IMG/VR virus record: IMGVR_UViG_3300032288_002811
Location: 13,391 to 77,390 of that record
DNA: 64,000 bases
DNA from: a virus
Reading direction: 5' to 3' (one strand)
Shown here: one piece after another, positions 1,253 through 36,836 of the stretch
How positions within the stretch are numbered: position 1 is the first letter of the stretch
How the letters are laid out: each line of letters opens with the position of its first letter
Program-made: the position numbers and the translations under genes
Notes under the pieces: model-generated
Database searches by the model: none
Told to the model about the DNA's origin: nothing
The model's input: only the letters and a program-made list of their open reading frames with translations

Positions 1253-2233
1253 TTAAGGGTTTTCTGTTATGGTTTTTGTATACGTATACAAACTGTTTGC
1301 GTTTGCATTTGTTGGATTTGGCTGAACAACTATTTCTGACAAAACGGATGGTACTACCTGATATGATGTAAAATTATAATTTGCATTTGTTATCATACCG
1401 TACACTGGTTGTGATGATATGAAATTACCATTGATTGATGTTAGATGTAGTTTTGAATTACTCCAACTTAAAACTCTAGCTGTTGCTGTTGCGGTACCAG
1501 CAGAATAACCTTGATACACACCTTCACCAATCTGGTAATTACCGATACCTGTATTACCCATATTAAATACAACCACATCTTCTGCTGTAATATTGTTTAG
1601 AATATTTGTGATAGATGTTGTGATTAAACTGGCACTTGATACTGGACCAAAAATAAAACCTTTGACAGTAAAATTTAATGTCCAAATAACCAATCTTGGG
1701 TCTGAACTTCTATTACCTTCATACTGAACATCTTGTGTTACATTATTTAAGATGATAGGTATTTCTTTGACCATTCCCATTTCTGGAACCAAGTTCAATT
1801 TGATTGTATAGTCCGGAGTAAAGTATGGTAGAATGTGTTCTATAACTTGTGTACCATCTTCAATGTTACGGACATATAGATATAAATTGAAATCGAAATT
1901 ATAAGGTACTGGATTATATTGTCCTACAACTGTACCACCAGTTGATGTTGCATAATTTCTTATGTTTGTATTTTGTTTTCTACTTGCATCATATTGTAAA
2001 CCAGTCATTTCGAATGATAATCTTGGTAAAGTTATTTGAACTTTTTTGTCCAAATTATAATCTTCTTCCAATCTTAACACATAGTGTTCTTTGGCTGCAT
2101 ATGCGATTGGTACAATAAACCGTTCAGCTTCAGTCAGGTCTGTATTGTATCTGACCATTGTTATTTCATTAAACAAGTTGCCAAAACCGACAACCAATTT
2201 ACGAATGATACGATTATAGAATATGTTTGCCAT
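1253..2233 (-). CDS. gp15: T4-like tail sheath stabilizer / tail terminator
   Basis: FYNRIIRKLVVGFGNLFNEI, VPIAYA, LPRLSFEM, PVPYNFDFNL, QVIEHILPYFTP, IWTLNFTVKG motifs; follows gp13-gp14. Confidence 0.92.
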   Translation of the reverse strand: MANIFYNRIIRKLVVGFGNLFNEITMVRYNTDLTEAERFIVPIAYAAKEHYVLRLEEDYNLDKKVQITLPRLSFEMTGLQYDASRKQNTNIRNYATSTGGTVVGQYNPVPYNFDFNLYLYVRNIEDGTQVIEHILPYFTPDYTIKLNLVPEMGMVKEIPIILNNVTQDVQYEGNRSSDPRLVIWTLNFTVKGFIFGPVSSASLITTSITNILNNITAEDVVVFNMGNTGIGNYQIGEGVYQGYSAGTATATARVLSWSNSKLHLTSINGNFISSQPVYGMITNANYNFTSYQVVPSVLSEIVVQPNPTNANANSLYTYTKTITENP

Positions 2234-3120
2234 TAAATGTTACCAAAAGGATTTGTTTCACTAAAATCAGCAATAGAATTTGCTTGCTGTTGAATGTATA
2301 GGTTGTCATATTTTTCATTATTCAATTCAACAGCCAACGGATCAAATGATGTTATTGTATATCGTGCATTACTTGTTGCACCAATAACAAGTGAATTGTT
2401 TGCAAACTCACCTGCAATATTGGTTACCGATAGTATTCTATTTTCTGTATCCCAACCAGAAACGGTACCAACAACTGTTGCATTTGCTTGTGTGTTATCT
2501 GGAGAACGGAACACAAGTTCTTTACTTAGGTATATTCCTGAACCACTATTTGACCGCATAGTCAAATCAATTGTATAAGCTGAGTTATCAACCACAATAT
2601 CAATATCTGGTACACCAGTATCGATAACTTCTTGTGAGTATTTGAATTTTTCCATTTCCAATTCATAGAAAAATGGAATTTTACGACCTAAACTAAAGAA
2701 GTCTTTAGTCTGGTTAACAAACTTAATTTCAAATAGTTCACCTGTACCATTAAGGAATGGAACATACACCAAATCACCCTCACGTGGTCGTGTAAATGTT
2801 TCTTGAGGAACTCTTAATGAAAAGGAACGTTTTGAAATGATGACACTAACATTGTTTTTAATTTCAAGGCCAAACTTGGAAAAGAATTCTCTTTCACCAC
2901 CGTATTCTAATACATTTGACAGATAGAATTCAACAGGAAATGCCGTGTTGAATTTTTTAACTGGATCTTCTCCATACAACAAATCTCTGGCTTGGTCATT
3001 GTCGTTAGGTAAATACATACCATCGAAACCCATAATTTTAATGGATTCGACAATCAAATCTTCTACTACTCTCTGTTCACTAAGAGCATTATAGTTATTA
3101 AAATACTGCGAGGTTGCCAT
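2233..3120 (-). CDS. gp14: T4-like neck protein
   Basis: EQRVVEDLIVESIKIMG, LYGED, FFSKFGLEI, RPREGDLVY, FFSLG, C-terminal DFSETNPFG. Confidence 0.92.
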   Translation of the reverse strand: MATSQYFNNYNALSEQRVVEDLIVESIKIMGFDGMYLPNDNDQARDLLYGEDPVKKFNTAFPVEFYLSNVLEYGGEREFFSKFGLEIKNNVSVIISKRSFSLRVPQETFTRPREGDLVYVPFLNGTGELFEIKFVNQTKDFFSLGRKIPFFYELEMEKFKYSQEVIDTGVPDIDIVVDNSAYTIDLTMRSNSGSGIYLSKELVFRSPDNTQANATVVGTVSGWDTENRILSVTNIAGEFANNSLVIGATSNARYTITSFDPLAVELNNEKYDNLYIQQQANSIADFSETNPFGNI

Positions 3121-3121
3121 A

Positions 3122-3895
3122 TTAGTTCATGTACCATTCCAGAGGACCACCATAATTGGTAATCATCTCGGTTTCTAATCTTGTTTTCTCACTCAGGCCT
3201 TCTTCAAATATTTTATCACCATTTAATATCACTCCGCCTGGTAATTGAATGCCACCAAATTTCTTGAGGTTTGAACCCCATTGGATTTTAATAAGATTGG
3301 ATGTATATTCTTTTAACCAACGGTCTTCCCATACCCTACCATAAATATCGGCATCTATTATTGCATAACATTCCGCAATAACTGTGGTACCTACTGGTGC
3401 TTCCGATGCACCCCAAGACCAATCAATGAACAGCTTCTGCATATGTCTCTGGAAACGAATAGGAACCTCACCTGTGAATAGTAATTCAAGTGAACGAAGG
3501 TGTTGTTGCGTTAGGGTATAATTGATGTAGGACGCTGAGGTAAAGTCATACAATTCATTTAGACGCAACTGGTATCTCAAGTCAAACATATTAACTTGAG
3601 ACAATGAATCCGAGATTGGGAAAATACGGGTGACACCAACAATTTCCAATGCATTATTGGATGCATCTCTGGCTTCGGTTAAATCCAGAAACTTGTTATT
3701 TACATCTGTATTTGTTATTTGTTTGATGTAGTATACTTTTTGTAGACCGTCAAAGTGGTAGTCGTGCCAATATTGTAGGGCATCATCAATCCTGTCTTCC
3801 ACTTGGTCATCGTCTACGTTAATGTCAATAACTGGAAAACCCAATCTACGTAAACAATAATCCTTAAATTGTGCTCTGGTTCTTACTGTGGACAT
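3122..3895 (-). CDS. gp13: T4-like neck protein
   Basis: YCLRRLGFPVIDINVDDDQVEDRIDDALQY...YHFDG, WLKEY, QWGSNLKKFGGIQLPGGVILNG; SD TAAGGAG at 3903-3909. Confidence 0.93.
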   Translation of the reverse strand: MSTVRTRAQFKDYCLRRLGFPVIDINVDDDQVEDRIDDALQYWHDYHFDGLQKVYYIKQITNTDVNNKFLDLTEARDASNNALEIVGVTRIFPISDSLSQVNMFDLRYQLRLNELYDFTSASYINYTLTQQHLRSLELLFTGEVPIRFQRHMQKLFIDWSWGASEAPVGTTVIAECYAIIDADIYGRVWEDRWLKEYTSNLIKIQWGSNLKKFGGIQLPGGVILNGDKIFEEGLSEKTRLETEMITNYGGPLEWYMN

Positions 3896-3928: not shown

Positions 3929-4645
3929 TTACCATTCCAATTTTTCATTCCTGTAAGATGCTCGTCCTGTGTCTGAACGATTGGAAATGGTGGTTTCTCC
4001 GTGTACATATGGATATGTTTCGGTCGCATATAAACCTTGGTGAGTAACATTAAATAAATCGATACGCATCATAATATCCAAAGAATTATTGATGCCGTGT
4101 TGAATCACATAACTGATTAAATTTTTGGCCACTACAGGATCAATTGCATATGCATGAGCTCTACACATAAACATCCAATTTGGTCCGTCTTGTGAATATG
4201 GCGGCAGAGGTTGCCTTGGCCAATTATGATTAACCCATTCACTTCCACCAAGATAAACAATACTATTATAACTATTCAATGTTTTCAAACGTTCAAGCAT
4301 TATGGCATCATGTTCAAGTATAACAATTGGTTTATCTATTACCGCACAATGAATCCATAAACTAAGGTGGCTTAGACAACATGCCACTTCTGCTTTGGTT
4401 AAATAATGGTCTGTAATTTTAACCATACTAATGATACTATCATTTTCCATATGTGGTGGTGCCACAATAAGACCAGGAGTTGAGTTGGTACCATCAAATG
4501 CGTCCCAAACTTTATAAGGCATGCCTACTTTTTCACAACTTTCTTGACAAACTTTTGAATATTTTTCACTTTTTTCATTATCTTTAATGGTAATGATGTA
4601 TGCAGATTCAACATCTATACTGTGACTACGAAATAAATTTAACAT
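3929..4645 (-). CDS. Glycosyltransferase, family 25-like
   Basis: AYIITI, WDAFDG, EVACCLSHLSLW, IVILEHDA, AHAYAI: the GT25 (LPS/LOS galactosyltransferase-like) motif series. Confidence 0.82.
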   Translation of the reverse strand: MLNLFRSHSIDVESAYIITIKDNEKSEKYSKVCQESCEKVGMPYKVWDAFDGTNSTPGLIVAPPHMENDSIISMVKITDHYLTKAEVACCLSHLSLWIHCAVIDKPIVILEHDAIMLERLKTLNSYNSIVYLGGSEWVNHNWPRQPLPPYSQDGPNWMFMCRAHAYAIDPVVAKNLISYVIQHGINNSLDIMMRIDLFNVTHQGLYATETYPYVHGETTISNRSDTGRASYRNEKLEW

Positions 4646-4650
4646 AATTT

Positions 4651-6408
4651 TTAATCCATTTTAATTGGTTCTATTTTCAACTTTGGCCAACTCAATCTTT
4701 CTTGAACTGCTTTATTTAATAATTTTTTATTAATACGTCCTGGTTTATATATTTGTAATATGTAAACAACAGAACTGGCTATATTATTGTATGTATTTAA
4801 TGCATAATCAATTTGTTGTGGATTCAGTCTTCTTTTGGTCATTTCTTCTTTAAAACTATCTGTAAAATGAAAATTGTAATTAAGAGTTTCTATATCAATA
4901 TCATGTTGAAATGCCAATAAACTATCGCTCCATCCTGTTTTTATTTTATCTAATGATTTTGGTTGATTAAACATATTAAACATTTCAAGTGTGATACTTC
5001 TTTTATGATCCGGATCATTAATAGCATTATCACATCTCCAATGTGGACATTGTATTTCCCATAAAGCATTATTTGAAGATATTCTATTCATTTCTTTTAG
5101 TACCGGAATAATATCGGCCGAGTTATTACCTAAATGTTCCAATATATCTTTTGCTACAATATGGTCAAATTCATCATCTTCAAACGGCCATGGAAATTTA
5201 TTAAAATCAACTAATAAATCTGGCTCAACTAAAGGATCGATATCTGCATTAATAAAATTTTCAATTTTTTTAAAACCACAACCCATATTTAATTTTTTAT
5301 ATTTTTTTATTTCAAAATTATGTTCTATATGTTTTAAATTAAATTTTTCTTCTAGTTCTTCATATAATAATTCAAATGGTGGTTTCCATTGACCTGCTTT
5401 TTTTTGTCTAAACAAACGAATATTTTTGTAATAAGGTGATCCACGGTTTTCTGGAGTTTTATATGCCCATGTATGATAACATAATACAGGAGTTATTATC
5501 CATGTTTCTTTACCCATTGCAGCTGCCATATGTGCAATGCTAGTACAAGCTGTAATTACAATATCTAAATTTTCAATGGCTGCCATGGTATCTTCCCAAT
5601 CAACCATTTTTTCATTTAAATCAATTATTTCTTTTGGTAATTCTATTAGATTGTCATCTCTTTGCAAACTATATATTTGTAATTCCGAATATTTTGATAA
5701 ATTTAAAAGAAATTTTTCTGGAAATATTCTATAACTCTGATGTTCAAATAAAGGACTTCCAGCCCATCGAATTCCAACTTTAATTTTTTCTGAATTGATT
5801 ATACTTTTCCACTTATTAACATATTCAGGTGAAGGTGACAAGTATGGTTCGTTGGGAAAATTATCAAAATCATGACCAGCCACATAACCTGCACTAAATG
5901 CAGGAATCCAATAATCATGTTCTACTGTATCAGCTTCAGTACGTAATATAACTTTATCTACACCTTCAATTCGACTGAATATATCAACAAACTCTGGTGA
6001 AGCCGCTAAGTATACATGTTTTGCACCTAAATTTTTGTAACTAGTAGCCCATCTAGAGTGTATAATTTCATCACCATAACCACCTTCTAATGATATAATT
6101 ATAGATTTGCCTTTGATATCATGTTCTTTTGGATTCCAAATTGGTGCGTCTGTTTTTAATCGTGGACTACCATAGGTTTCTATTAATCTACCTGATTCTA
6201 AAGCTTCTCCAGCTTCTTTATATTTACCTTCATATACAAGAAACCAACCACGATTGTATGTATGTCGTATCCAAATATCTTGTGTGTTTTTTCCATAGTC
6301 ATCCAAAATCTTTTTGGGACCAAGCATTTGCATTTTGTCACTTATTGCTTTAGCTTCTTTGTGTTTACCTTGATACTGAAGTATCAACATTTCATTCATT
6401 TCATGCAT
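4651..6408 (-). CDS. GT-B (GT9/heptosyltransferase-like) glycosyltransferase fused to a C-terminal class I SAM methyltransferase
   Basis: EGGYGDEI (EQGxGD-type motif), KVGIRWAGSP, DWEDTMAAIENLDIVITACTSIAHMAAAMGKETW; then KLNMGCG...NADIDP...FPWPFEDDEFDHIVAKDILEHL (Methyltransf_11-like). Confidence 0.8.
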   Translation of the reverse strand: MHEMNEMLILQYQGKHKEAKAISDKMQMLGPKKILDDYGKNTQDIWIRHTYNRGWFLVYEGKYKEAGEALESGRLIETYGSPRLKTDAPIWNPKEHDIKGKSIIISLEGGYGDEIIHSRWATSYKNLGAKHVYLAASPEFVDIFSRIEGVDKVILRTEADTVEHDYWIPAFSAGYVAGHDFDNFPNEPYLSPSPEYVNKWKSIINSEKIKVGIRWAGSPLFEHQSYRIFPEKFLLNLSKYSELQIYSLQRDDNLIELPKEIIDLNEKMVDWEDTMAAIENLDIVITACTSIAHMAAAMGKETWIITPVLCYHTWAYKTPENRGSPYYKNIRLFRQKKAGQWKPPFELLYEELEEKFNLKHIEHNFEIKKYKKLNMGCGFKKIENFINADIDPLVEPDLLVDFNKFPWPFEDDEFDHIVAKDILEHLGNNSADIIPVLKEMNRISSNNALWEIQCPHWRCDNAINDPDHKRSITLEMFNMFNQPKSLDKIKTGWSDSLLAFQHDIDIETLNYNFHFTDSFKEEMTKRRLNPQQIDYALNTYNNIASSVVYILQIYKPGRINKKLLNKAVQERLSWPKLKIEPIKMD

Positions 6409-6420
6409 AATATATTCTTT

Positions 6421-7800
6421 CTATTTTTTTCTAATATCAACTATCAAATCAAATTCTACTTCTTTAATATATATGTCATACTTAAAACGTATGGCTAAAC
6501 TTTCAAAAAGTTTTTTAGTAAAACCACATTTGTGTGACATATATTCATTGTTATTTTTATGTGTATGTGTGTTTGATCCATACAAAATATCCATAACTGT
6601 AATTGGTGTATTTGAATCTGCATAATACATAATATCCAATATATCACCTGTAGTTATTTTATGACCTAATCTGCTCATATTAGGTGTAACAAGTCGAACA
6701 AAACCACCTTCTTTTGTAATTCTTAATAATTCATTTATTACGGTTGGTACTTTGAAAAAATGAATATGTTCAATCATATGACTAGAAAAAACAACGTCCA
6801 CAAATTCATTTGGTATATGACTTAAATCATGTACACTAGCTATTATATCTGGATTATATTTTTTGTCAATATCAAGTGACAATTCTTTGTAATTTAATTT
6901 AACCAAATCTTCGGTAAATATTTGTTCAGAAATTTTTGATCCACCAAAACCCACATTTAATATTGTTTTTTCGATTGTTGGTTGTAATTTTTCTGGCCTA
7001 TCATATTTGTCCCACCATTCTCTCCAATTTATATATGGATCTCTTTCTGTTTCATATTGCATATGTAATGCCAGACTTGGCATAGGAACAAATAGATAAT
7101 AACCACGTTCTTGGAACAATCTATTGATGGTATTATCTTCCATCTTTTCTTCCACAGGATGGTCACCCATAGCTTCAAATAAATCCCACTCTTGTTGTAT
7201 AACAGCCCACCAAGTCATAAAACAACTAGCTGTAGCGATTTGAGTTCGCCAATGTTTTCCTTGAGATTGTATTATGTGACTTTGTATTGCTGTATTTTCT
7301 GGAATATAATAACGATAAGGATCATTAAATGGGTATATGCTAGTAAAGTTTCCTACTTTGTTTGTTGTATCTATCAAAGTTACTATCATGTCAAAAATAG
7401 CAGTAGTTTCATATAGATAATCATCTTGTGCAAAATAAACAATATCTATACCATGTTCTAAACCATGTTCATAACATTTTTTAATACTTGGCATAATACC
7501 ATAAGTATCTAATGGAATAAATTCTGTTGGAAATGTTGCAAGATTTAGGTTATTTTTTAACTCATCTATGGATGAATCATCACTATGGTCATCATATACT
7601 ACCAATTTAAATTTGGTACGGCCGTTGAATAGTTCTTTGGCATAAATTAATGATTCAATTAAACTACGTGTGCAACGTCTTTGTATTTCACCTTTAGATG
7701 CACCACAATATCTTTCCTCTTTTGTGATATCGAGATAATGTTGATTATCTCCTTTACTGTGTGTTTGTAATATCACAAGTACATTTAATATATTTTCCAT
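6421..7800 (-). CDS. GT-A (GT2-like) glycosyltransferase fused to a C-terminal class I SAM methyltransferase
   Basis: LVVYDDHS and YFAQDDYLY (DxD-type) in the N-terminal half; ILNVGFGG, LDID, VFSSHMIEH, LLRITKEGG in the C-terminal part. ATG at 7800 with GAGAG at 7811-7815 is preferred over the track's TTG at 7827. Confidence 0.75.
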   Translation of the reverse strand: MENILNVLVILQTHSKGDNQHYLDITKEERYCGASKGEIQRRCTRSLIESLIYAKELFNGRTKFKLVVYDDHSDDSSIDELKNNLNLATFPTEFIPLDTYGIMPSIKKCYEHGLEHGIDIVYFAQDDYLYETTAIFDMIVTLIDTTNKVGNFTSIYPFNDPYRYYIPENTAIQSHIIQSQGKHWRTQIATASCFMTWWAVIQQEWDLFEAMGDHPVEEKMEDNTINRLFQERGYYLFVPMPSLALHMQYETERDPYINWREWWDKYDRPEKLQPTIEKTILNVGFGGSKISEQIFTEDLVKLNYKELSLDIDKKYNPDIIASVHDLSHIPNEFVDVVFSSHMIEHIHFFKVPTVINELLRITKEGGFVRLVTPNMSRLGHKITTGDILDIMYYADSNTPITVMDILYGSNTHTHKNNNEYMSHKCGFTKKLFESLAIRFKYDIYIKEVEFDLIVDIRKK

Positions 7801-7833
7801 TTTATAATCACTCTCTATAATATACAATAATAT

Positions 7834-7841
7834 TATTTATA
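7834..7841 (-). promoter_or_regulatory. Perfect T4 late promoter TATAAATA heading the glycosyltransferase cassette
   Basis: tatttata on + strand at 7834-7841 in the intergenic gap. Confidence 0.75.
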
Positions 7842-7851
7842 TATGATAAAT

Positions 7852-9708
7852 TTAACAGTAAAATACTGTTTGGAAAGCTCCTAGTGTGAAAGATCCAGTG
7901 CCACTGGATGCTACATTAGTCATAATTTGTGTTGGGCTACTTCTTACTGTACTTGCAGCTGCCAGTTGACAACCATATAGTCCATCTCCCCAAGCATACA
8001 ATACTCCTCCAGTAGTTACAGCCATAGCATGTGATGAACCAGCATCAACTTTTGAAAAAGTTGTTCCTGGCATAAGTTGTACTGGACTACTTCTATTGAC
8101 TGTAGCTGTGTTTCCTCCATGATATGGTGCTAGACCCCAACCAAAAAGTCTTCCATTAATATCAATTGCAAATCCGGCATAACCGGCTGCTGCAATTTGA
8201 CTATAACTACTACCTGTCGGATAAAGCAAAGCAGCATTACTTTTGTTAACAGTAAGATTATCACCTAGATTTCCATAACCATTATAACCCATTGAAAATA
8301 CTCTACCTGTATTTTGTAACCAAGTTGTATGTGTAGCTCCACCAACCATTGCTACATAACTAGACGATACTAATACGGGAGTACTTGCATTTGCTATTGT
8401 TCCACTTCCTGTTTGACCATAAAGATTGTATCCCCAAGCATAAGATGCGCCAGCTGTTGTAATAGCATATGTAGTGCCTGCTGAACCTCTATTCAGATTA
8501 GTATATTGACATGCAGAACCAGTAAGATTACCTGCAATAATTTGTGGGTATATTCTGGTACCAGAATTGACACCTGTTCCACCGCCTGTTGAACCGTTAG
8601 CGTTATTTCCCCAAGTGTAACATAACAAATTACTATAACCTAATGCTATTGTATATTGATTGTATGCATCAGCTCCATAGTATAAATTACTAGGTGCGCC
8701 GGCAGTAGTTAATTGTACAGGACTACTTCGAGCACCGGCACCAGCGCTGGTATTATTACCCCACTGAGCGGCCGTGTTTACGCCCCATATCCATAGTGTA
8801 GCGTCCGATTTAAGTCCGTTGGTTACGACATTACCATAATAATTGTATGCCCATTGACCAAAAGTTGATATAGGTCCAACTAAATTTGCTCTATTTGTAC
8901 CAGAAGTAAATACTGCTGTTGATTTATTGACTGTTGTGTTGTCACCTAATTGGCCACCTGTATTTAATCCAAAAGCAACAGTAAAACGTTCATATAATGT
9001 TTGTGTGGCCGAAACACCAACTTGTGTTCCAAAGTTATCAGGTGAAACACCTACTGTAAAAGTCCGTTCATTACCACCAGAATCATAATTTGTTGTTGTT
9101 AAACTGATTGTACCAGTACCTGTAACAGAAGTAGTAAAAGAACCTGAACTAGTAGTAAAATGTGAAGATGATGTTCCACCATGATTAATTCGCCAATATA
9201 ATAATTGACTATTATAACCTGTACATGCAACTGCAAGGTTGAAAGTACCTAAGCCCGCTTGGCCACCTCTAAGACAAATGTTTGACTGCCCACGTATGGC
9301 CGCTGACCTAGTAACCGTTGCTGTTACAGTTGTAGAAGTATCATTAACTGTTACTGAAGCACTGGTTGCAATAACTGTTCCTGATATTGAATCTGTTCTA
9401 ATACTAACTGTAAATGTTTCTGCACCTTCAGTTGTAAAATCTGCAATTGGTGTAATAGAAAAAGTACCTGAAGAAGCTGAAACTGTAATTGTACCTGAAG
9501 TTGCAGAAAAATCTCCAGAAGATGTTGTTACATGATTGATTGTCCAATATAATGTACCACTAGCAAAATTCGTTGTTGTTATACCAAATGATCCAGCAGA
9601 ACCTTCGTTGATTGAAGATGGTGTAGTATTAAATGTGGCTGATGCACTTAATACACCACCTGCTGCACCAAAACCTAACGATTGACCTATACTAGAATAA
9701 CGAGGCAT
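7852..9708 (-). CDS. RCC1/BLIP-II beta-propeller protein with N-terminal Calx-beta/Ig-like domains; candidate fibre-tip adhesin
   Basis: SINEG...LYWTI...DFTTEGAETFTVSIR...VTVNDTS (Calx-beta-like, second degenerate copy follows); RCC1 repeats FGLNTGGQLGDNT, WGYNLYGQTGSG, GYNGYGNLGDNL, AGSSHAMAVTTGGVLYAWG. Confidence 0.8.
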   Translation of the reverse strand: MPRYSSIGQSLGFGAAGGVLSASATFNTTPSSINEGSAGSFGITTTNFASGTLYWTINHVTTSSGDFSATSGTITVSASSGTFSITPIADFTTEGAETFTVSIRTDSISGTVIATSASVTVNDTSTTVTATVTRSAAIRGQSNICLRGGQAGLGTFNLAVACTGYNSQLLYWRINHGGTSSSHFTTSSGSFTTSVTGTGTISLTTTNYDSGGNERTFTVGVSPDNFGTQVGVSATQTLYERFTVAFGLNTGGQLGDNTTVNKSTAVFTSGTNRANLVGPISTFGQWAYNYYGNVVTNGLKSDATLWIWGVNTAAQWGNNTSAGAGARSSPVQLTTAGAPSNLYYGADAYNQYTIALGYSNLLCYTWGNNANGSTGGGTGVNSGTRIYPQIIAGNLTGSACQYTNLNRGSAGTTYAITTAGASYAWGYNLYGQTGSGTIANASTPVLVSSSYVAMVGGATHTTWLQNTGRVFSMGYNGYGNLGDNLTVNKSNAALLYPTGSSYSQIAAAGYAGFAIDINGRLFGWGLAPYHGGNTATVNRSSPVQLMPGTTFSKVDAGSSHAMAVTTGGVLYAWGDGLYGCQLAAASTVRSSPTQIMTNVASSGTGSFTLGAFQTVFYC

Positions 9709-9711
9709 ATT

Positions 9712-12700
9712 TTATCCGTATGAGTTTAATTGGCCAAGAATTGTAAATGTACCGGAAACATTAATCAATGTAAATGTTATCACATCAACTCTATTTGCGA
9801 CACCAACACCCGTTGTAGCATTTAACCATTTAATAGTAGGTGTTGAACCATTAACTGATATACTATTAACAATATATGGTGTTGCGCCTTGTGCAATTAT
9901 ACAAACAAATGTTGATACACGACTTGAAGTATTATCTAAACCAGTAATTGTTGCGGTAATGTTACCACCAACGCCTGTATGATAAAATGTGGCACCTGTA
10001 GAGTAATCATATGTTGTTGCACCACTAGAACTTGATTTGGATTGAAAGTTTTCTTGTGATTGTTGGAAAACTGTGTTACTACTAAAGGTTACTAGACCAG
10101 ATACTGTACCACCAGCTTTTGGTAGTGCATTGTTAGCAGTTGTAAATGCAGAGTTGGCATATGAACCTGCACCTGTTGCATTTGTGCCAGCGGTATTAGC
10201 AATACCAAACGCTGCGTTAGCATATGAACCAGCAGACAATGCATTAGTTGCAGCAGTATTGGCTTGTGTGAAAGCACCATTAGCGTAACCAGCTGCAGCA
10301 GTTACATTATTAGCAGTTGAGAATGCGGCATTAGCATATGAACCAGCACTTGTTCCTTTGGCATCTGCTGTATTGGCTGCCGTGAAAGCACCGTTGGCAT
10401 ATGTACCAGCTGATACTGCCTTAGCATCAGCTGTGGAAGCATTAGTAGCTGCGGTATTTGATTGAGAGAAACTGGAATTGGCATATGATGCTGCAGAATT
10501 AGCTACGGCAAATCCAGAGTTGGCATATGAACTTGCTGAAGCAGATGAAGCAGCATTAGCTGCTGTGAATGCACCGTTAGCATACGATGCAGCTGAGTTA
10601 GCAACATAACTTGGAGTATTGGCCGATAGGAAAGCAGAGTTAGCATATGAACTAGCAGCAGTTACGTTATTGGCTTGAGTGAATGCACCGTTGGCATACA
10701 ACGCAGCTGAGTTGGCAACATTACTCGGAGTGTTAGCTGTTAAGAATGCTGAGTTGGCATATGAACTAGCAGCAGTTATGTTATTAGCAATACCAAATGC
10801 TGAGTTAGCATATACACCAGCAGAATTGGCAGAAATGAAGGCACCATTTGCATATGAACTTGCTGAAGCAGATGACGCTGCATTAGCAGCTGTAAAAGCA
10901 CCGTTAGCATATACACCAGCAGATGTTGCGGTATTGGCTTGTGTGAAGGCACCGTTAGCATACGATGCAGCTGAGTTGGCAGTATAACTTGGAGTATTAG
11001 CCTGTAAGAAGGCAGAGTTAGCATATGAACTTGCTGAAGCAGATGAAGCTGCATTAGCTGCTGCAAAGGCACCGTTAGCATACGATGCAGCTGAGTTGGC
11101 AGTATAACTTGGAGTATTAGCAGTTAAGAATGCTGAGTTGGCATATGAACTTGCTGAAGCAGATGAAGCTGCATTAGCTGCTGCAAAGGCACCGTTAGCA
11201 TATGAACCTGCACCTACTGCTTTAGAGTCTGCCGTATTAGCTGCAATGAAAGCACCATTAGCATATATTGCAGCAGGAACAACACTCTCAAAAGCACTAT
11301 TTGCAACATTAAAAGCGGATGTTGCATTCAAAGCAGCAGTATTGGCAACTGTAAATGCTGAATTGGCATATGATCCAGATGTTACTGCCTTAGCATCCGC
11401 TGTTGCAGCATTAGTTGTTGCGGTATTGGCTTGTGTGAAGGCACCATTCGCATACACACCAGCAGACGTTGCAGTATTAGCTTGAGTGAAGGCACCGTTA
11501 GCATATATGGCTGCCGAGTTAGCAACATAACTTGGAGTATTGGCCGCTAGGAATGCAGAGTTGGCATAAACACCTGCCGAAGATGCACCACTTGCTGAGT
11601 TAGCAGCCGCAAAGGCCGCATTTGCATATGAACTAGAAGAATTAGCAACAGTAAAAGCACCGTTAGCATATACACCTGCCGAAGCTGCACCACTTGCTGA
11701 GTTAGCAGCCGCAAATGCCGAGTTGGCATAAGAACCAGCAGTTACTGCCTTAGCATCGGCCGTGTTAGCACCAGCGAATGCTGAGTTGGCATAAACACCT
11801 GCTGGTGTTGCTGTGTTAGCCTGTAAGAAGGCCGCATTTGCATATGAACCAGCAGAGTTTGCACCAGCATATGCATTGATTAAGTCACTAGACCATCCTG
11901 TATCATAGTTTGTTGAACTGTTCTTAACTAATACTTGACCTGTAGTACCACCAGAAGCAACACCATTACCAGTTGCGCCTGTGGTACCAGTTGCACCAGT
12001 TGGTCCACGTGGACCTTGGCCACCAGTTACTGTTTGTTCAAGTGCAAAATAATCTATCTTGGATGCATGTCCTGTATTACCAGCATTGCTGTGATATAAA
12101 CGAGCTTGAACTGCACCAGCAGAAATATAAGATGTATAACCTAATACTTCAAGTGCATATTGTGCATAACCATTGGCACCAGAATATGAACCAATATTGT
12201 CCCATGAAGATGTGGAATTGTTATAAATTTGGAAATAAATTATATGACCAGATGCTGGTGTGTAATCAATATTTGCAACGATTCGGTTGAATGATGTTAT
12301 ACCACTAAATGTAAATGTAATAATCCACGCAGGACCACTACCATTACCATCAGTTATTTGATATGAATTGCCATCATTCAATGTTTGTGTATCGGTTACA
12401 GAACCAGAAACATAAACACCATTAGTTAATGACAAACTGTCCGCTGTATATGAAGTTGTTGCTGGAGCTTCAATATCTGCAAAACTCAATACACCCGTAC
12501 CATCAGTAATTAAATATTGACCTGGTGCACCACCATAAATGTGTAAGTTGTCAACTACACCAAGTGCAACATTGGCTCCAACAGAATTCACATTACCAGA
12601 AATCTTAAATGCATTGTTTGATGTGAAGTATTCTAAGTTGCTTGTGTTACTTAAATAACCATTATTGTTGGCAAAAATTATAGTATTTGCTTTCCAGCCA

Positions 12701-14274
12701 CTTACTTGTGTTGCGTTGTTTGATTGAGTAAAAGCTGCATTAGCATATGAACCCGCACTTGTTGCTTTAGTATCTGCTGTATTGGCTGCTGTAAATGCAC
12801 CATTCGCATAAACACCAGCAGCAGTTGCCGTGTTGGCTTGTGTGAAAGCACCATTTGCATATGCAGCTGCAGAATTTGCCGTGTAACTTGGTGTATTGGC
12901 TGCTAAGAATGCCGAGTTGGCATATGAACCAGATGCACCACCTGCTGTATTAGCAACAGCAAATGCTGAGTTTGCATACGAACCAGCAGTTACTGCTTTA
13001 GCATCTGCGGTATTGGCCACACCAAATGCCGTATTGGCATATGTGCCAGAATTTACTGCCTTGGTATCAGCAGTATTAGCAGCAGTAAAAGCGCCGTTGG
13101 CATAAGAACCTGCTGATACACTAGTATTAGCCGCACTAAATGCCGAATTGGCATATGAACCTGATGCTACTGATTTGGCATCGGCTGTATTGGCTGCCGT
13201 GAAAGCACCGTTGGCATAAGAAGCTGCTGAAGTGATATTGGTGTTTTGTGTTAAATCAATACCAACACCGTTATTAGCTGACAAGAATGCTGAGTTGGCA
13301 TATGAACCTGCTGAATTGGCTGTACCAAAAGCACCATTAGCATATACACCTGAAGATGTTCCACTTAATGAGGCTGTATTGGCTGTTGCAAATGCACCGT
13401 TGGCATATATCGCAGCTGAGTTAGCCACACCAAATGCCGTATTGGCATATGTGCCAGAATTTACTGCCTTAGTGTCAGCAGTATTAGCAGCAGTATAACC
13501 TGAATTGGCATATGAACTGGCTGCTAATCCATTTGTATAAGCTGTGTTTGCTTGAGTATATGCGGAGTTGGCATAAGAACCTGCGGTGTTTCCTTTGTCA
13601 TATGCATTTGCAATAACACCAGCAGTATCAACACCACCGATTGTTATCTTACTAGCAATTACATTTGCTTTGACCACATTTGCGGCCACATTTGCATACT
13701 TGAATGATGAGTCAGTAACAATAATATTATTATTTGGTAATACTTCAGGTGTATATTCTTCAAAGAACATCCATTCTTTGGTGCCTGCATCTCTAATAAT
13801 ACCTGTATGAGCATTTACACCATTATTATAATGTGCTGCAAAACCAATATCAATTACATCAGATGTATAATTACCAATACCCATAATAAACATCGAATCA
13901 TTTACAACAAATGAATTTGTATTGATGTTTGTAGTATTACCAAGAATGTTTAAGTTGCCGGTAACTGTTAGGTTTTGATTTACGTTTAAAGAACCTGTAA
14001 TTGTACCACCAGTTAATGGTAATGCATTGTTAGCTGCATCAAACGCTGATTGACCGGTAGTATCACTTTTTTGTACTAGGTCACCATCAGCAGTTCCAGA
14101 TTTCCACCAGTATTCAACAACTGGAGAAGAACCAATACCAACAGTCAAACCAAGATAACGATTTCCAACAGACACAGAACTCTTAGCAGTAGCTGTATCT
14201 GCATATGGACCGTACCTAGAATCGGTCGATAAAGGTGCTTGTATACTTAGATTGTCGTTTAGGGTAATTGCCAT
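9712..14274 (-). CDS. Fibre protein, 1520 aa: Ala/Asn heptad repeats, knob module, central beta-sandwich, short collagen-like stretch, C-terminal beta domain
   Basis: YAN(S/G/A)AF repeats; GGQGPRGPTGATGTTGATG followed by GGTTGQVLVKNSSTNYDTGW; C-terminal TIKWLN...DVITFTL. Confidence 0.75.
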   Translation of the reverse strand: MAITLNDNLSIQAPLSTDSRYGPYADTATAKSSVSVGNRYLGLTVGIGSSPVVEYWWKSGTADGDLVQKSDTTGQSAFDAANNALPLTGGTITGSLNVNQNLTVTGNLNILGNTTNINTNSFVVNDSMFIMGIGNYTSDVIDIGFAAHYNNGVNAHTGIIRDAGTKEWMFFEEYTPEVLPNNNIIVTDSSFKYANVAANVVKANVIASKITIGGVDTAGVIANAYDKGNTAGSYANSAYTQANTAYTNGLAASSYANSGYTAANTADTKAVNSGTYANTAFGVANSAAIYANGAFATANTASLSGTSSGVYANGAFGTANSAGSYANSAFLSANNGVGIDLTQNTNITSAASYANGAFTAANTADAKSVASGSYANSAFSAANTSVSAGSYANGAFTAANTADTKAVNSGTYANTAFGVANTADAKAVTAGSYANSAFAVANTAGGASGSYANSAFLAANTPSYTANSAAAYANGAFTQANTATAAGVYANGAFTAANTADTKATSAGSYANAAFTQSNNATQVSGWKANTIIFANNNGYLSNTSNLEYFTSNNAFKISGNVNSVGANVALGVVDNLHIYGGAPGQYLITDGTGVLSFADIEAPATTSYTADSLSLTNGVYVSGSVTDTQTLNDGNSYQITDGNGSGPAWIITFTFSGITSFNRIVANIDYTPASGHIIYFQIYNNSTSSWDNIGSYSGANGYAQYALEVLGYTSYISAGAVQARLYHSNAGNTGHASKIDYFALEQTVTGGQGPRGPTGATGTTGATGNGVASGGTTGQVLVKNSSTNYDTGWSSDLINAYAGANSAGSYANAAFLQANTATPAGVYANSAFAGANTADAKAVTAGSYANSAFAAANSASGAASAGVYANGAFTVANSSSSYANAAFAAANSASGASSAGVYANSAFLAANTPSYVANSAAIYANGAFTQANTATSAGVYANGAFTQANTATTNAATADAKAVTSGSYANSAFTVANTAALNATSAFNVANSAFESVVPAAIYANGAFIAANTADSKAVGAGSYANGAFAAANAASSASASSYANSAFLTANTPSYTANSAASYANGAFAAANAASSASASSYANSAFLQANTPSYTANSAASYANGAFTQANTATSAGVYANGAFTAANAASSASASSYANGAFISANSAGVYANSAFGIANNITAASSYANSAFLTANTPSNVANSAALYANGAFTQANNVTAASSYANSAFLSANTPSYVANSAASYANGAFTAANAASSASASSYANSGFAVANSAASYANSSFSQSNTAATNASTADAKAVSAGTYANGAFTAANTADAKGTSAGSYANAAFSTANNVTAAAGYANGAFTQANTAATNALSAGSYANAAFGIANTAGTNATGAGSYANSAFTTANNALPKAGGTVSGLVTFSSNTVFQQSQENFQSKSSSSGATTYDYSTGATFYHTGVGGNITATITGLDNTSSRVSTFVCIIAQGATPYIVNSISVNGSTPTIKWLNATTGVGVANRVDVITFTLINVSGTFTILGQLNSYG

Positions 14275-15930: not shown

Positions 15931-15950
15931 ATTGTTTTTTGCTTATTATT

Positions 15951-34423: not shown

Positions 34424-36836
34424 ACGTGCCACCAGAAATCAGATTCGCTCGAAGTGTTCCACCCAATATTACATTACCCGATACACCAATACCACCAACT
34501 ATAACCATTGTACCTGTATCTGTTGCCGTTGAATTAACATTTGAATTTGCAATTAATTGTCCAAAATTACCTACACTTGCACCACCTGAACCAGATACAC
34601 TAAATGTTGCACCCGTATCACTTGTTAATGATATTGCACCACCTTCAGCAGAAATCTCTGCACCACCCAAATCAATAGTGTTACCAGCAAGAAACAGTTT
34701 ACGCCAACGTCTTGTTGGACTGCCTAAATCGTAACTGATATTTGCAGAAGGTAAGATATGACCGGCATATGTATTAGCCTGTATAATTACCTGACCTTGT
34801 AATGTTAAAGCACCACTAACTGTACCACCAGTTTTTGGTAAAGCAGCATCAGCAAGATTATAAGCAGAATTGGCTTGAAGAAATGATGAGTTGGCGTATG
34901 ATGCAGATGAGTTTGCTGTATAACTTGGTGTGTTAGCTTGAATGAAAGCTGCATTGGCTGTACTGAATGAAGCATTTGCTTGTCTGAATGCACCATTAGC
35001 ATAATTTGATGCCGAATTGGCCGAAACAAAAGCCCCGTTGGCATATGTTCCACCAGAAACTCCAGTGGATGAGGCTGCATTGGCTGCGTCAAATGCTGTG
35101 TTGGCTTGTGTTCGAACCCATGTATCTACAGCACTATTAGCAGCTGCAAAGGCCGCATTGGCGTATATGCCAGAAGAATTGGCTGCAACAAAAGCACCGT
35201 TAGCATATAATGCTGCTGAGTTGGCAACATTACTTGGTGTATTGGCTTGTAGGAAAGCCGCATTTGCTTGTACAAAAGCACCGTTAGCATAAACACTAGC
35301 TGCTGTAGTATTATTTGCTGCAATGAATGCCGCATTTGCTTGTACAAAAGCACCATTCGCATACAACGCAGCTGAGTTAGCAACATTACTTGGTGTGTTA
35401 GCAGTTAAGAAAGCACCGTTGGCGTATACACCAGCGGATGCAGCTGTATTAGCAACAACAAACGCAGCATTAGCATATGAACTTACTGAATTTGATGTAG
35501 TAAATGCACCATTAGCATATAATGCAGCCGAGTTAGCAACATTACTTGGAGTATTTGCTTGTAGGAAAGCGGCATTCGCTTGTACGAAAGCACCGTTAGC
35601 ATATAATGCAGCTGAGTTGGCAACATTGCTTGGTGTATTGGCTTGCAAGAAGGCCGCATTAGCATATACACCAGATGAATTAGCTGCATCAAATGCTGAA
35701 TTTGAATTTAAGAAAGCCGCATTAGCATAAACACCAGAAGAATTAGCAGCAACAAATGCAGAATTTGCTTTTATAAAAGCAAGATTGGCTGTATTAAAAG
35801 AGGATGTTATGTGTGAATATGCATTTATTCCATTTATAGTTGCATATTCAGCAATTAAATTACCTTTAAATACATTTGAATAAACGTTGGCATATGAAAA
35901 TGATGGATGAGCAAGGTCAATTAAGTTATTACCTTCAACTTCAGGTGTATATCCTTGAAAGAAAATCCATTCTTTTCTGTTTGGATCTCTAAAAATACCT
36001 GTGTGAGCATTAGATCCAGAATTATAATTACCAATAATACCAATGTCAACTGCATCACTGCTGTAATTATTACTACCCAAATATATTAAAGTATCGGTTA
36101 CTGTAACGCTTTGTGTACTAATTGTTGTACTATTACCAAAAACAATCAAGTTACCAGAAACTGTAAGGTCATTTGTTACATTTAATGAACCTGAAACTGT
36201 ACCACCAGTAGCTAATGATGTAGTATTTGCTTTATCAAACGCACCTTGTGCAAGGTTTGTTGCAGATGTAATATTGGTATTTTGTGTTGTATTAACACCT
36301 TGTAACAATATAATATTATTTGATGCGGTATTGGCTGTGTCAAACGCAGCGTTTGCTTGTGCAAAAGCAAAAACAGCCAAACCTGCACCGTTGGCAGTAT
36401 TGTATGCAGCTTGTGCTAATGCTGATGCTGAATTGGCCGCACCAAATGCAGAGTTGGCATATATGCCTACTGTTACAGAATTATTTGCATTCGTATTTGC
36501 TTGTAAGAAAGCTGCATTAGCTTTAGTAAATGCACCATTTGCTTGGTTGAAAGCAGCATTTGCGCCTGCCCATGCAAGACTTAAATTACCTGTAGAACCC
36601 GCTGAATTAGCAGTATTGAATGCAGCCTGTGCTAATGTAGTAGCAGTATTGGCCTGTGTATATGCATTTATACCAGTTGCCACCGCTGTGGCACCACCAA
36701 TGGTAATTACATTACCATATTGATTACCAATATAAAATGTATTTGCTAAAAATGAGTAAGCTAATGCGCCATCTTGTAAAAAAGTCGGTGCAGTATTAGC
36801 ATACGACCTTAATATCTGTACACTTGTATTTGACAT
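34419..36836 (-). CDS. Fibre protein, 805 aa
   Basis: N-terminal VQILRSY...PTFLQDGALAYS...FYIGN, heptad repeats, knob module, ILPSANISYDLGSPTRRWRKLFL; ends ISGGTF. Confidence 0.75.
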   Translation of the reverse strand: MSNTSVQILRSYANTAPTFLQDGALAYSFLANTFYIGNQYGNVITIGGATAVATGINAYTQANTATTLAQAAFNTANSAGSTGNLSLAWAGANAAFNQANGAFTKANAAFLQANTNANNSVTVGIYANSAFGAANSASALAQAAYNTANGAGLAVFAFAQANAAFDTANTASNNIILLQGVNTTQNTNITSATNLAQGAFDKANTTSLATGGTVSGSLNVTNDLTVSGNLIVFGNSTTISTQSVTVTDTLIYLGSNNYSSDAVDIGIIGNYNSGSNAHTGIFRDPNRKEWIFFQGYTPEVEGNNLIDLAHPSFSYANVYSNVFKGNLIAEYATINGINAYSHITSSFNTANLAFIKANSAFVAANSSGVYANAAFLNSNSAFDAANSSGVYANAAFLQANTPSNVANSAALYANGAFVQANAAFLQANTPSNVANSAALYANGAFTTSNSVSSYANAAFVVANTAASAGVYANGAFLTANTPSNVANSAALYANGAFVQANAAFIAANNTTAASVYANGAFVQANAAFLQANTPSNVANSAALYANGAFVAANSSGIYANAAFAAANSAVDTWVRTQANTAFDAANAASSTGVSGGTYANGAFVSANSASNYANGAFRQANASFSTANAAFIQANTPSYTANSSASYANSSFLQANSAYNLADAALPKTGGTVSGALTLQGQVIIQANTYAGHILPSANISYDLGSPTRRWRKLFLAGNTIDLGGAEISAEGGAISLTSDTGATFSVSGSGGASVGNFGQLIANSNVNSTATDTGTMVIVGGIGVSGNVILGGTLRANLISGGTF

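Follow-up and report, generated by a model that had tools for sequence, protein, structure and literature searches.

The 64-kb stretch of DNA analysed here (64,000 nucleotides (nt), positions 13,391-77,390 of IMG/VR virus record IMGVR_UViG_3300032288_002811; hereafter the window) comes from a T4-like myophage and bears, between its late fibre block and gp13, a cassette of three open reading frames (ORF-A, ORF-B and ORF-C) encoding glycosyltransferases, two of them fused to methyltransferases. One of these genes, ORF-B, which specifies a GT9-like glycosyltransferase joined to a methyltransferase, is recurrently found next to a gene encoding an RCC1-repeat protein. Since the linkage between RCC1 and GT9 genes spans phages, Bdellovibrionota and Planctomycetota, the most economical reading of these gene neighbourhoods is that the RCC1 propeller would be the acceptor, or at least an obligate partner, of the GT9 enzyme. 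It is quite possible, if far from assured, that the cassette glycosylates the RCC1 protein of the fibre module in the cytoplasm, providing it with a heptose-containing, methyl-capped glycan. The genes concerned, in the order in which they would be transcribed, are:

7852-9708, minus strand: RCC1-repeat protein, 618 amino acids (aa), Pfam RCC1 E 2.7e-19; final gene of the late fibre block
7834-7841, minus strand: T4-type late promoter motif TATAAATA, 33 nt 5′ of the ATG of ORF-A
6421-7800, minus strand: ORF-A, 459 aa, GT-A glycosyltransferase plus class I S-adenosylmethionine (SAM) methyltransferase
4651-6408, minus strand: ORF-B, 585 aa, helical TPR-like N-terminus plus GT9-fold GT-B glycosyltransferase plus class I SAM methyltransferase
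3929-4645, minus strand: ORF-C, 238 aa, family 25 glycosyltransferase
3122-3895, minus strand: gp13-like protein, PHROG 211 E 5e-36
2233-3120, minus strand: gp14 neck protein, Pfam T4_neck-protein E 3e-28
1253-2233, minus strand: gp15 tail-sheath stabiliser, Pfam T4-gp15_tss E 6e-65

To establish how far the gene pair extends among phages, IMG/VR was scanned for relatives of the cassette; this yielded 176 loci, 80 of which were kept, and the locus counts given below refer to these 80. An RCC1 gene lay upstream in 72 of them, a GT25 gene downstream of the ORF-B homologue in 62, and a GT-A homologue was present in 50, with gp13-15 further downstream wherever the contig extended that far. The median distance from the end of the RCC1 match to the start of ORF-B was 178 nt, and in 69 of 70 cases it did not exceed 1.5 kb. 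Two cultured cyanophages have the pair as well. Among cultured phages, a full-length ORF-B homologue (46% identity) is confined to the Synechococcus phage BUCT-ZZ01 (ON615601), in which the protein encoded upstream, deposited as a 'BNR repeat domain protein' (L001 6131-8233), is an RCC1 protein (Pfam E 2e-130, 13 repeats). In S-SRM01 the TPR-GT9 part of ORF-B is present, and around its gene lie three RCC1 genes deposited as 'hypothetical proteins'. Since the cassette recurs in no fewer than 176 loci of IMG/VR, and in two cultured cyanophages as well, it is a conserved feature of a large group of aquatic phages and not an oddity of this one, contrary to the view of the initial annotation, which took it to be unusual for a T4-like phage. 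Cassettes of this general kind are already known from aquatic T4-like phages: Zaragoza-Solas et al. (2020, PMC7029224) described the same phenomenon, glycosyltransferases embedded among tail-fibre genes, for pelagimyophages and cyanomyophages, within the host-recognition cluster, although neither the GT9-methyltransferase fusion nor its linkage to RCC1 is described there. No description of this fusion with RCC1 pairing was found in the literature searched, and both the fusion and the conserved pairing appear to be undescribed.

The pairing was also found in bacterial chromosomes. In Bdellovibrio bacteriovorus the GT9 gene is accompanied by a separate methyltransferase gene, then by genes for two RCC1 proteins of ~1,080 aa, while in a planctomycete the RCC1, GT9 and GT-A homologues follow one another in that order with overlapping stops and starts. 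In the genome of this planctomycete (7.2 Mb) and a Bdellovibrionales genome of 3.8 Mb, the sole RCC1 gene adjoins the sole GT9 homologue. A GT9 homologue was present in 12 of 301 sampled Bdellovibrionota genomes; taking this sample together with loci found earlier, 16 sites were available, 11 of which adjoin an RCC1 gene (among them two GT9-RCC1 units arranged in tandem), while four do not and one lies on a contig that is too short to tell. In one Bdellovibrio genome the GT9 gene was paired with a GT25 homologue instead. The RCC1 protein of B. bacteriovorus Bd16 (L091 9511-12786) was seen by eye to start with a Tat-like SRRAFL motif followed by an Ala-rich stretch; such a signal suggests that the protein may be exported in a folded state, possibly after modification in the cytoplasm. 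The set of RCC1, GT9 and GT-A genes was also seen on contigs binned as Nomurabacteria or Saccharibacteria, which could be bacterial or phage.

In the window, the RCC1 protein encoded upstream of the cassette has two Ser/Thr-rich N-terminal repeats followed by a seven-blade propeller, and its composition is fibre-like and near-uncharged (Lys + Glu, 1.4%). This composition, together with the place of its gene at the end of the late fibre block, makes it a probable outer component of the virion. The initial annotation had placed the cassette next to the last fibre gene; the position was right, but the product of that gene is an RCC1-repeat β-propeller and not a heptad fibre. Giant open reading frames of up to ~4,500 aa with dozens of RCC1 repeats were observed in the fibre block just 5′ of the cassette in relatives L018, L056 and L076 (located at G304:C1:112000-132000, G307:C1:20000-39000 and G306:C1:80000-98000); the fibres of these phages are built to a large extent from RCC1 propellers.

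The domains of ORF-B were delimited on an AlphaFold 2 (AF2) model built from a 25-sequence alignment (pLDDT 85.5). Residues 1-80 (nt 6169-6408) form about two helical hairpins of TPR-like appearance, residues 1-76 being all helical in the model; they are followed by a GT-B domain (aa 84-358, nt 5335-6159) and a methyltransferase domain (aa 367-585, nt 4654-5310). When compared with known structures by Foldseek and VIA-align, the GT-B domain gave its highest scores with the GT9 structures 3tov (Z 17.9), WaaF (1psw; Z 16.8), TibC (Z 16.8) and WaaC (Z 16.1), against ~11 for other GT-B enzymes (Foldseek E 6e-8). The modelled glycosyltransferase is therefore assigned to the GT9 fold and is heptosyltransferase-like. 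ORF-B did not match the Pfam PF01075 profile at E ≤ 0.01, and this profile was found on just 10-15% of the nearest viral cluster members, plus longer TPR-GT9 relatives; ORF-B is a divergent branch of GT9. It has more than 1,130 homologues, the cellular ones being TPR-GT9 fusions. Across 25 homologues, G109-G110 and G112-D113-E114 are invariant in the loop after strand 102-106, whose Asp is, by position alone, a candidate counterpart of the catalytic WaaC D13 and TibC D110; C288 is the sole invariant cysteine. The methyltransferase domain (Z 12.6) has N374, G376 and G378 invariant in the same homologues, with a Pfam score of 17.1 bits, below the cut-off of 21.2. Sequence-only searches of the PDB with ORF-A, ORF-B and ORF-C gave nothing useful, and a search of NCBIfam nothing specific.

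A close parallel is provided by the autotransporter heptosyltransferases TibC and AAH, whose partners are the adhesins TibA and AIDA-I; TibC heptosylates Ser residues of the adhesin encoded next to it (PMC4358343). ORF-B resembles TibC in its GT9-like GT-B fold (root-mean-square deviation 2.9 over 247 residues) and in being a predicted soluble cytoplasmic enzyme whose gene adjoins that of a large surface protein, repetitive and rich in Ser and Thr, with ADP-heptose as the likely donor. It differs in having a helical TPR-like N-terminus where TibC has a β-barrel, in lacking the four-cysteine iron finger, in its fused methyltransferase, and in its neighbour, an RCC1 propeller rather than a β-helix autotransporter. 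Its assignment to the TibC/BAHT family was rejected on account of the helical N-terminus and the missing iron finger. By structure, ORF-B comes closest to the LPS core heptosyltransferases WaaC and WaaF and to 3tov (Z 16-18), to whose Gly-Asp loop after the first strand its own conserved loop would, by position, correspond. It lacks a PF01075 match, however, possesses helical and methyltransferase domains in addition and is acidic, and its homologues adjoin RCC1 genes rather than waa clusters. As regards the N-terminus, the flagellin glycosyltransferase FlmG offers a parallel in layout: an N-terminal TPR domain binds flagellin and a C-terminal GT-B domain transfers pseudaminic acid in the cytoplasm, before assembly (PMC7591256). 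The sugar and substrate of FlmG are its own, and ORF-B has only about two helical hairpins. The TPR-like front domain of ORF-B and the existence of TPR-GT9 relatives point to a protein partner.

For ORF-A, the ATG at 7800 was taken as the start, instead of the TTG at 7827 of the ORF listing, because a 98%-identical homologue has the same start. Its model (AF2, 25-sequence alignment, pLDDT 86) comprises a GT-A domain (aa 1-270, nt 6991-7800), most similar to GnT-I (Z 15.7), TarP (Z 15.1) and SpsA (Z 15.0), and a methyltransferase domain (aa 275-459, nt 6424-6978; Z ~14) that matched Pfam Methyltransf_11 with 30.4 bits against a cut-off of 21.2. D70, D71 and the DXD motif Q125-D126-D127 are invariant in 25 homologues, as are G284 and G286 of methyltransferase motif I; PF00535 was recognised on some of the homologues, though not on the window protein. 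As judged from the model, ORF-A is a GT2-like GT-A glycosyltransferase fused to a class I SAM methyltransferase; it has ~300 homologues in a large protein collection. Its methyltransferase domain is only 24% identical to that of ORF-B (E 0.002), and the idea that the two are recent duplicates was rejected. ORF-C scored 54.2 bits (cut-off 24) with Pfam PF01755 (Glyco_transf_25), at an E value of 2.2e-14, and 41 distinct sequences conserve E86, S92-H93, W97, E111-H112-D113 and R162-A-H-A-Y166; by profile and motifs it is a family 25 glycosyltransferase, as the initial annotation had proposed. Fusion of glycosyltransferase and methyltransferase domains has a viral counterpart in A064R of chlorovirus PBCV-1, in which two glycosyltransferase domains are joined to a methyltransferase and produce the methylated glycans of the capsid. 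The likeness lies in the domain logic only (the ORF-A and ORF-B fusions would yield O-methylated sugars on a virion protein), and no A064R structure was among the matches listed for ORF-A or ORF-B.

The probable donor sugar is suggested by the larger cassettes of relatives. Many of these are tightly packed and contain additional methyltransferases, sulfotransferases, UDP-galactopyranose mutase (Glf) and a methyltransferase-GT32-GT2-TPR protein; collagen-repeat proteins were also seen in some. A split HldE was identified in 12-13 loci, with separate genes for the heptose-7-P kinase (rfaE domain I, E 5e-42) and the heptose-1-P adenylyltransferase (rfaE domain II, E 1e-32), in company with a WbuC-like cupin and mostly also an NAD-dependent epimerase; in L017, L020, L027, L028, L037, L055, L072 and L074 it lies ~1.5-8 kb downstream of the ORF-B homologue. 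As annotated, these genes equip the phages to make ADP-heptose and to modify it, and an rfaE-II-like gene was present on three of five long related contigs. The presence of rfaE domain I and II genes in related cassettes supports ADP-heptose as the likely donor of the GT9 enzyme. ORF-A, ORF-B and ORF-C are all acidic and devoid of hydrophobic or transmembrane segments, as expected of soluble proteins. Among the gene clusters recurring downstream of ORF-B in at least three of the 80 loci, none was a multi-transmembrane flippase, polymerase or ligase; a lipid-carrier pathway is therefore unlikely, which argues for direct transfer to the final acceptor in the cytoplasm.

Taken as a glycosylation system for the RCC1 protein, the cassette would be a soluble, stepwise cytoplasmic pathway made late, with the neck proteins and just after those of the fibres. 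ORF-B would recognise the RCC1 propeller encoded directly upstream (probably a fibre-tip or adhesin module) and attach to it a heptose from ADP-heptose; ORF-A, by means of its GT-A domain, and ORF-C, as a GT25 enzyme, would lengthen the chain, whose sugars would be O-methylated or capped by the two fused methyltransferase domains. The modification might serve stability, resistance to proteases or decoys, or the tuning of receptor binding.

The timing assumed above is consistent with the promoters of this phage. The motif TATAAATA corresponds in sequence to the −10 element of a T4-type late unit and is present 5′ of the first gene of the cassette; the window contains two copies where 9.0 would be expected, and each of them lies between genes, on the coding strand. 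Its core, ATAAATA, is likewise depleted (15 copies against 33 expected), and 12 of the 15 are on the minus strand, mostly directly 5′ of late genes; the copies at 15947, 20534, 31400, 37443, 40395, 48269, 55026 and 61046 (minus strand) can serve to map the late promoters of the structural module. The genes from ORF-A to gp15 are separated by at most 33 nt (12 nt between ORF-A and ORF-B, 5 nt between ORF-B and ORF-C, 33 nt between ORF-C and gp13). Because neither a further ATAAATA on the minus strand nor a convincing terminator was found between ORF-A and gp15, ORF-A, ORF-B, ORF-C and gp13-15 look like a single, probably late, transcription unit. The layout described in the initial annotation (three enzymes with five catalytic domains, on the same strand as their neighbours, between the fibre block and gp13 and behind a perfect late promoter) was accurate, the domains being confirmed by Pfam, the AF2 models and the Foldseek and VIA-align matches.

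Several points weigh against glycosylation of the RCC1 protein. Characterised GT9 and GT25 enzymes mostly act on the cores of lipopolysaccharide (LPS) or lipooligosaccharide (LOS), those of GT9 (WaaC, WaaF) being structural matches of ORF-B, and linkage of RCC1 and GT9 genes can also mean shared specificity instead of an enzyme-substrate pair. ORF-B is devoid of the modules that define TibC. The consensus of RCC1 blades is almost identical in GT9-linked proteins (133 blades) and in unlinked ones of Bdellovibrio (114 blades), an uninformative result, and a search for GT9-RCC1 fusions among the longer homologues returned only TPR-multi-GT9 and FkbM-methyltransferase fusions, which is weak negative evidence. 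The place of the RCC1 protein in the virion is deduced from gene position and composition. ADP-heptose genes were not found on the source contig (a 77-kb IMG/VR viral contig, ~46% complete by estimate), so the phage would have to obtain the donor from its host or encode its synthesis in the half of the genome that is missing. Finally, late expression may not be general. A perfect σ70 consensus (TTGACA-N16-TATAAT) is present at 6869-6842 on the minus strand, within ORF-A and 434 nt 5′ of ORF-B, and could provide promoter activity independent of the late programme; two perfect copies (TTGACA-N16-18-TATAAT) occur in the window against 0.16 expected (first-order Markov model, whole window), the second at ~36022-36049 (minus strand) within an 805-aa fibre gene and, as in ORF-A, on the coding strand. 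ATAAATA was present no more than 120 nt 5′ of ORF-B in just 28 of 75 relatives, and about half are without the late motif there; inspection by eye of the others showed an ATAAGTA variant or, in several, a clear σ70-like promoter. Since many relatives have a σ70-like promoter and no late motif 5′ of ORF-B, expression timing may differ between phages, and the late expression that had been claimed for the cassette is probable for this phage, where it looks like one unit with the neck genes, but not uniformly for its relatives.

The first of these points favour the alternative that survives best, itself unlikely, namely that the enzymes remodel the envelope, acting at the inner membrane on the lipid A-core or LOS or on another surface glycan of the host. 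The RCC1 protein would then be an adhesin or receptor-binding protein that recognises the modified glycan, the gene linkage reflecting a shared glycan specificity, and the outcome could be superinfection exclusion, avoidance of progeny adsorption to debris or, for a predator, being spared self-binding; in Bdellovibrio the enzymes would act on the cell's own envelope. This is what the literature assumes for the glycosyltransferases in the host-recognition clusters of pelagimyophages and cyanomyophages (PMC7029224, PMC12801897), which Zaragoza-Solas et al. read, without tests, as modifying the host O-chain. The σ70-like promoters 5′ of ORF-B in several relatives would permit early expression, and the Glf, sulfotransferase and heptose-modifying enzymes of relatives are typical of surface-polysaccharide diversification. 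Against it, the cassette of the window has a late promoter and belongs to a late operon, and a lytic phage would gain little from LPS remodelling at the end of infection. The bacterial homologues adjoin RCC1 genes and not waa or other LPS clusters, ORF-B is acidic and has no membrane-binding feature, and its TPR-like front domain, together with the TPR-GT9 relatives, speaks for a protein as the partner.

It is improbable that other virion proteins (the Ala/Asn heptad fibre shafts, the neck or the capsid) are those glycosylated and that RCC1 is merely a neighbour. Such a reading draws on the probable co-transcription of the cassette with gp13-15, on its location beside ~30 kb of Ser/Thr/Asn-rich fibre genes, and on mycobacteriophages, for which Freeman et al. 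(2023), as cited in PMC12619734, demonstrated glycans on the C-termini of capsid and tail-tube subunits and phage-encoded glycosyltransferases. As far as that citation goes, the likeness lies in glycosyltransferase genes next to structural genes whose products would be modified; the glycosyltransferase families, host and phage type are different. Any match to the heptad fibre proteins was found in just 1-6 of the 80 loci, against 72 with RCC1, so that in relatives the cassette and the heptad fibres do not occur together, and the bacterial loci retain RCC1 with no phage structural genes. The neighbouring fibres are indeed rich in Ser, Thr, Asn and Tyr (37-42%), as had been stated, but the many N-x-S/T sequons that had been offered as support are not an argument for glycosylation: when each protein was compared with 300 shuffles of the same composition, the sequons were depleted in the fibres of 1520, 1515 and 3610 aa (z −2.6, −4.0 and −3.7, respectively) and at expectation in the RCC1 protein (z 0.0), and they were discarded as evidence. 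The initial annotation was thus largely right in what it observed, the sequons excepted, and its interpretation is partly supported: the enzymes could build the O-methylated oligosaccharide it envisaged on fibres or capsid, but the best-supported partner is the RCC1 protein rather than the heptad fibres or the capsid.

Modification of DNA (glycosylated, methylated bases in the T-even style) or of a small molecule or secondary metabolite is very improbable: phage glycosyltransferases are classically DNA-modifying and the methyltransferase domains match small-molecule methyltransferases, if only generically, but the cassette lies in a late structural operon, its RCC1 linkage recurs in bacterial chromosomes, no T4 α- or β-glucosyltransferase structure was among the matches listed for ORF-A and ORF-B, and neither the cassette nor those of its relatives showed a gene for base hydroxymethylation.

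Glycosylation of the RCC1 protein, if it occurs, has consequences beyond this phage. When abundant aquatic myophages carry glycosyltransferases in their fibre modules, these are commonly set aside as auxiliary genes that modify host LPS; were they to glycosylate the phage's own receptor-binding propeller, virion glycosylation would extend from mycobacteriophages to a large group of environmental phages, with a bearing on host-range prediction, and GT9 and RCC1 would represent a new enzyme-substrate pair that phages have in common with predatory bacteria. A broader idea, held with more doubt than confidence, is that of a widespread and undescribed cytoplasmic system dedicated to RCC1 adhesins, consisting of a TPR-GT9 (heptosyl)transferase with GT-A, GT25 and methyltransferase enzymes. 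Its RCC1 modules would be the fibre tips of phages and exported, Tat-signal-bearing surface proteins of Bdellovibrionota and other bacteria, and phages and predators would share one way of glyco-armouring or tuning the proteins with which they recognise their prey. The question is testable, as the cultured phages S-SRM01 and BUCT-ZZ01 and the genetically tractable B. bacteriovorus carry the same gene pair; no publication on the virion proteomics of either phage was found.

The assignment of the source phage to the T4-like myophages agrees with its gp15, which shares ~46% identity with the gp15 proteins of cyanomyophages and Pelagibacter phage Mosig; a megablast search of phage records did not find a near relative. 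From position 1 to 61015 of the window every gene is on the minus strand. psbA was found neither in the source contig nor in any of five long relatives, of which one is 100% complete, and the host of most of the clade is probably not a cyanobacterium, though both cultured carriers are cyanophages. Two loci binned into Ferruginibacter/Bacteroidetes metagenome-assembled genomes, L083 (with the RCC1, ORF-B and GT25 cassette) and L084 (with gp13-gp15), look like mis-binned contigs of T4-like phages; L085, L088 and L090 are further binned contigs of this set. ORF-A lies 5′ of ORF-B in this phage, while in most relatives its homologue is downstream or absent. The G+C content is 26-33% in the cassette (4500-7500) and 37-48% in the adjacent fibre genes (10000-13500), a difference that may just mirror the Ala/Gly-rich composition of the fibres and would also fit a mobile module.

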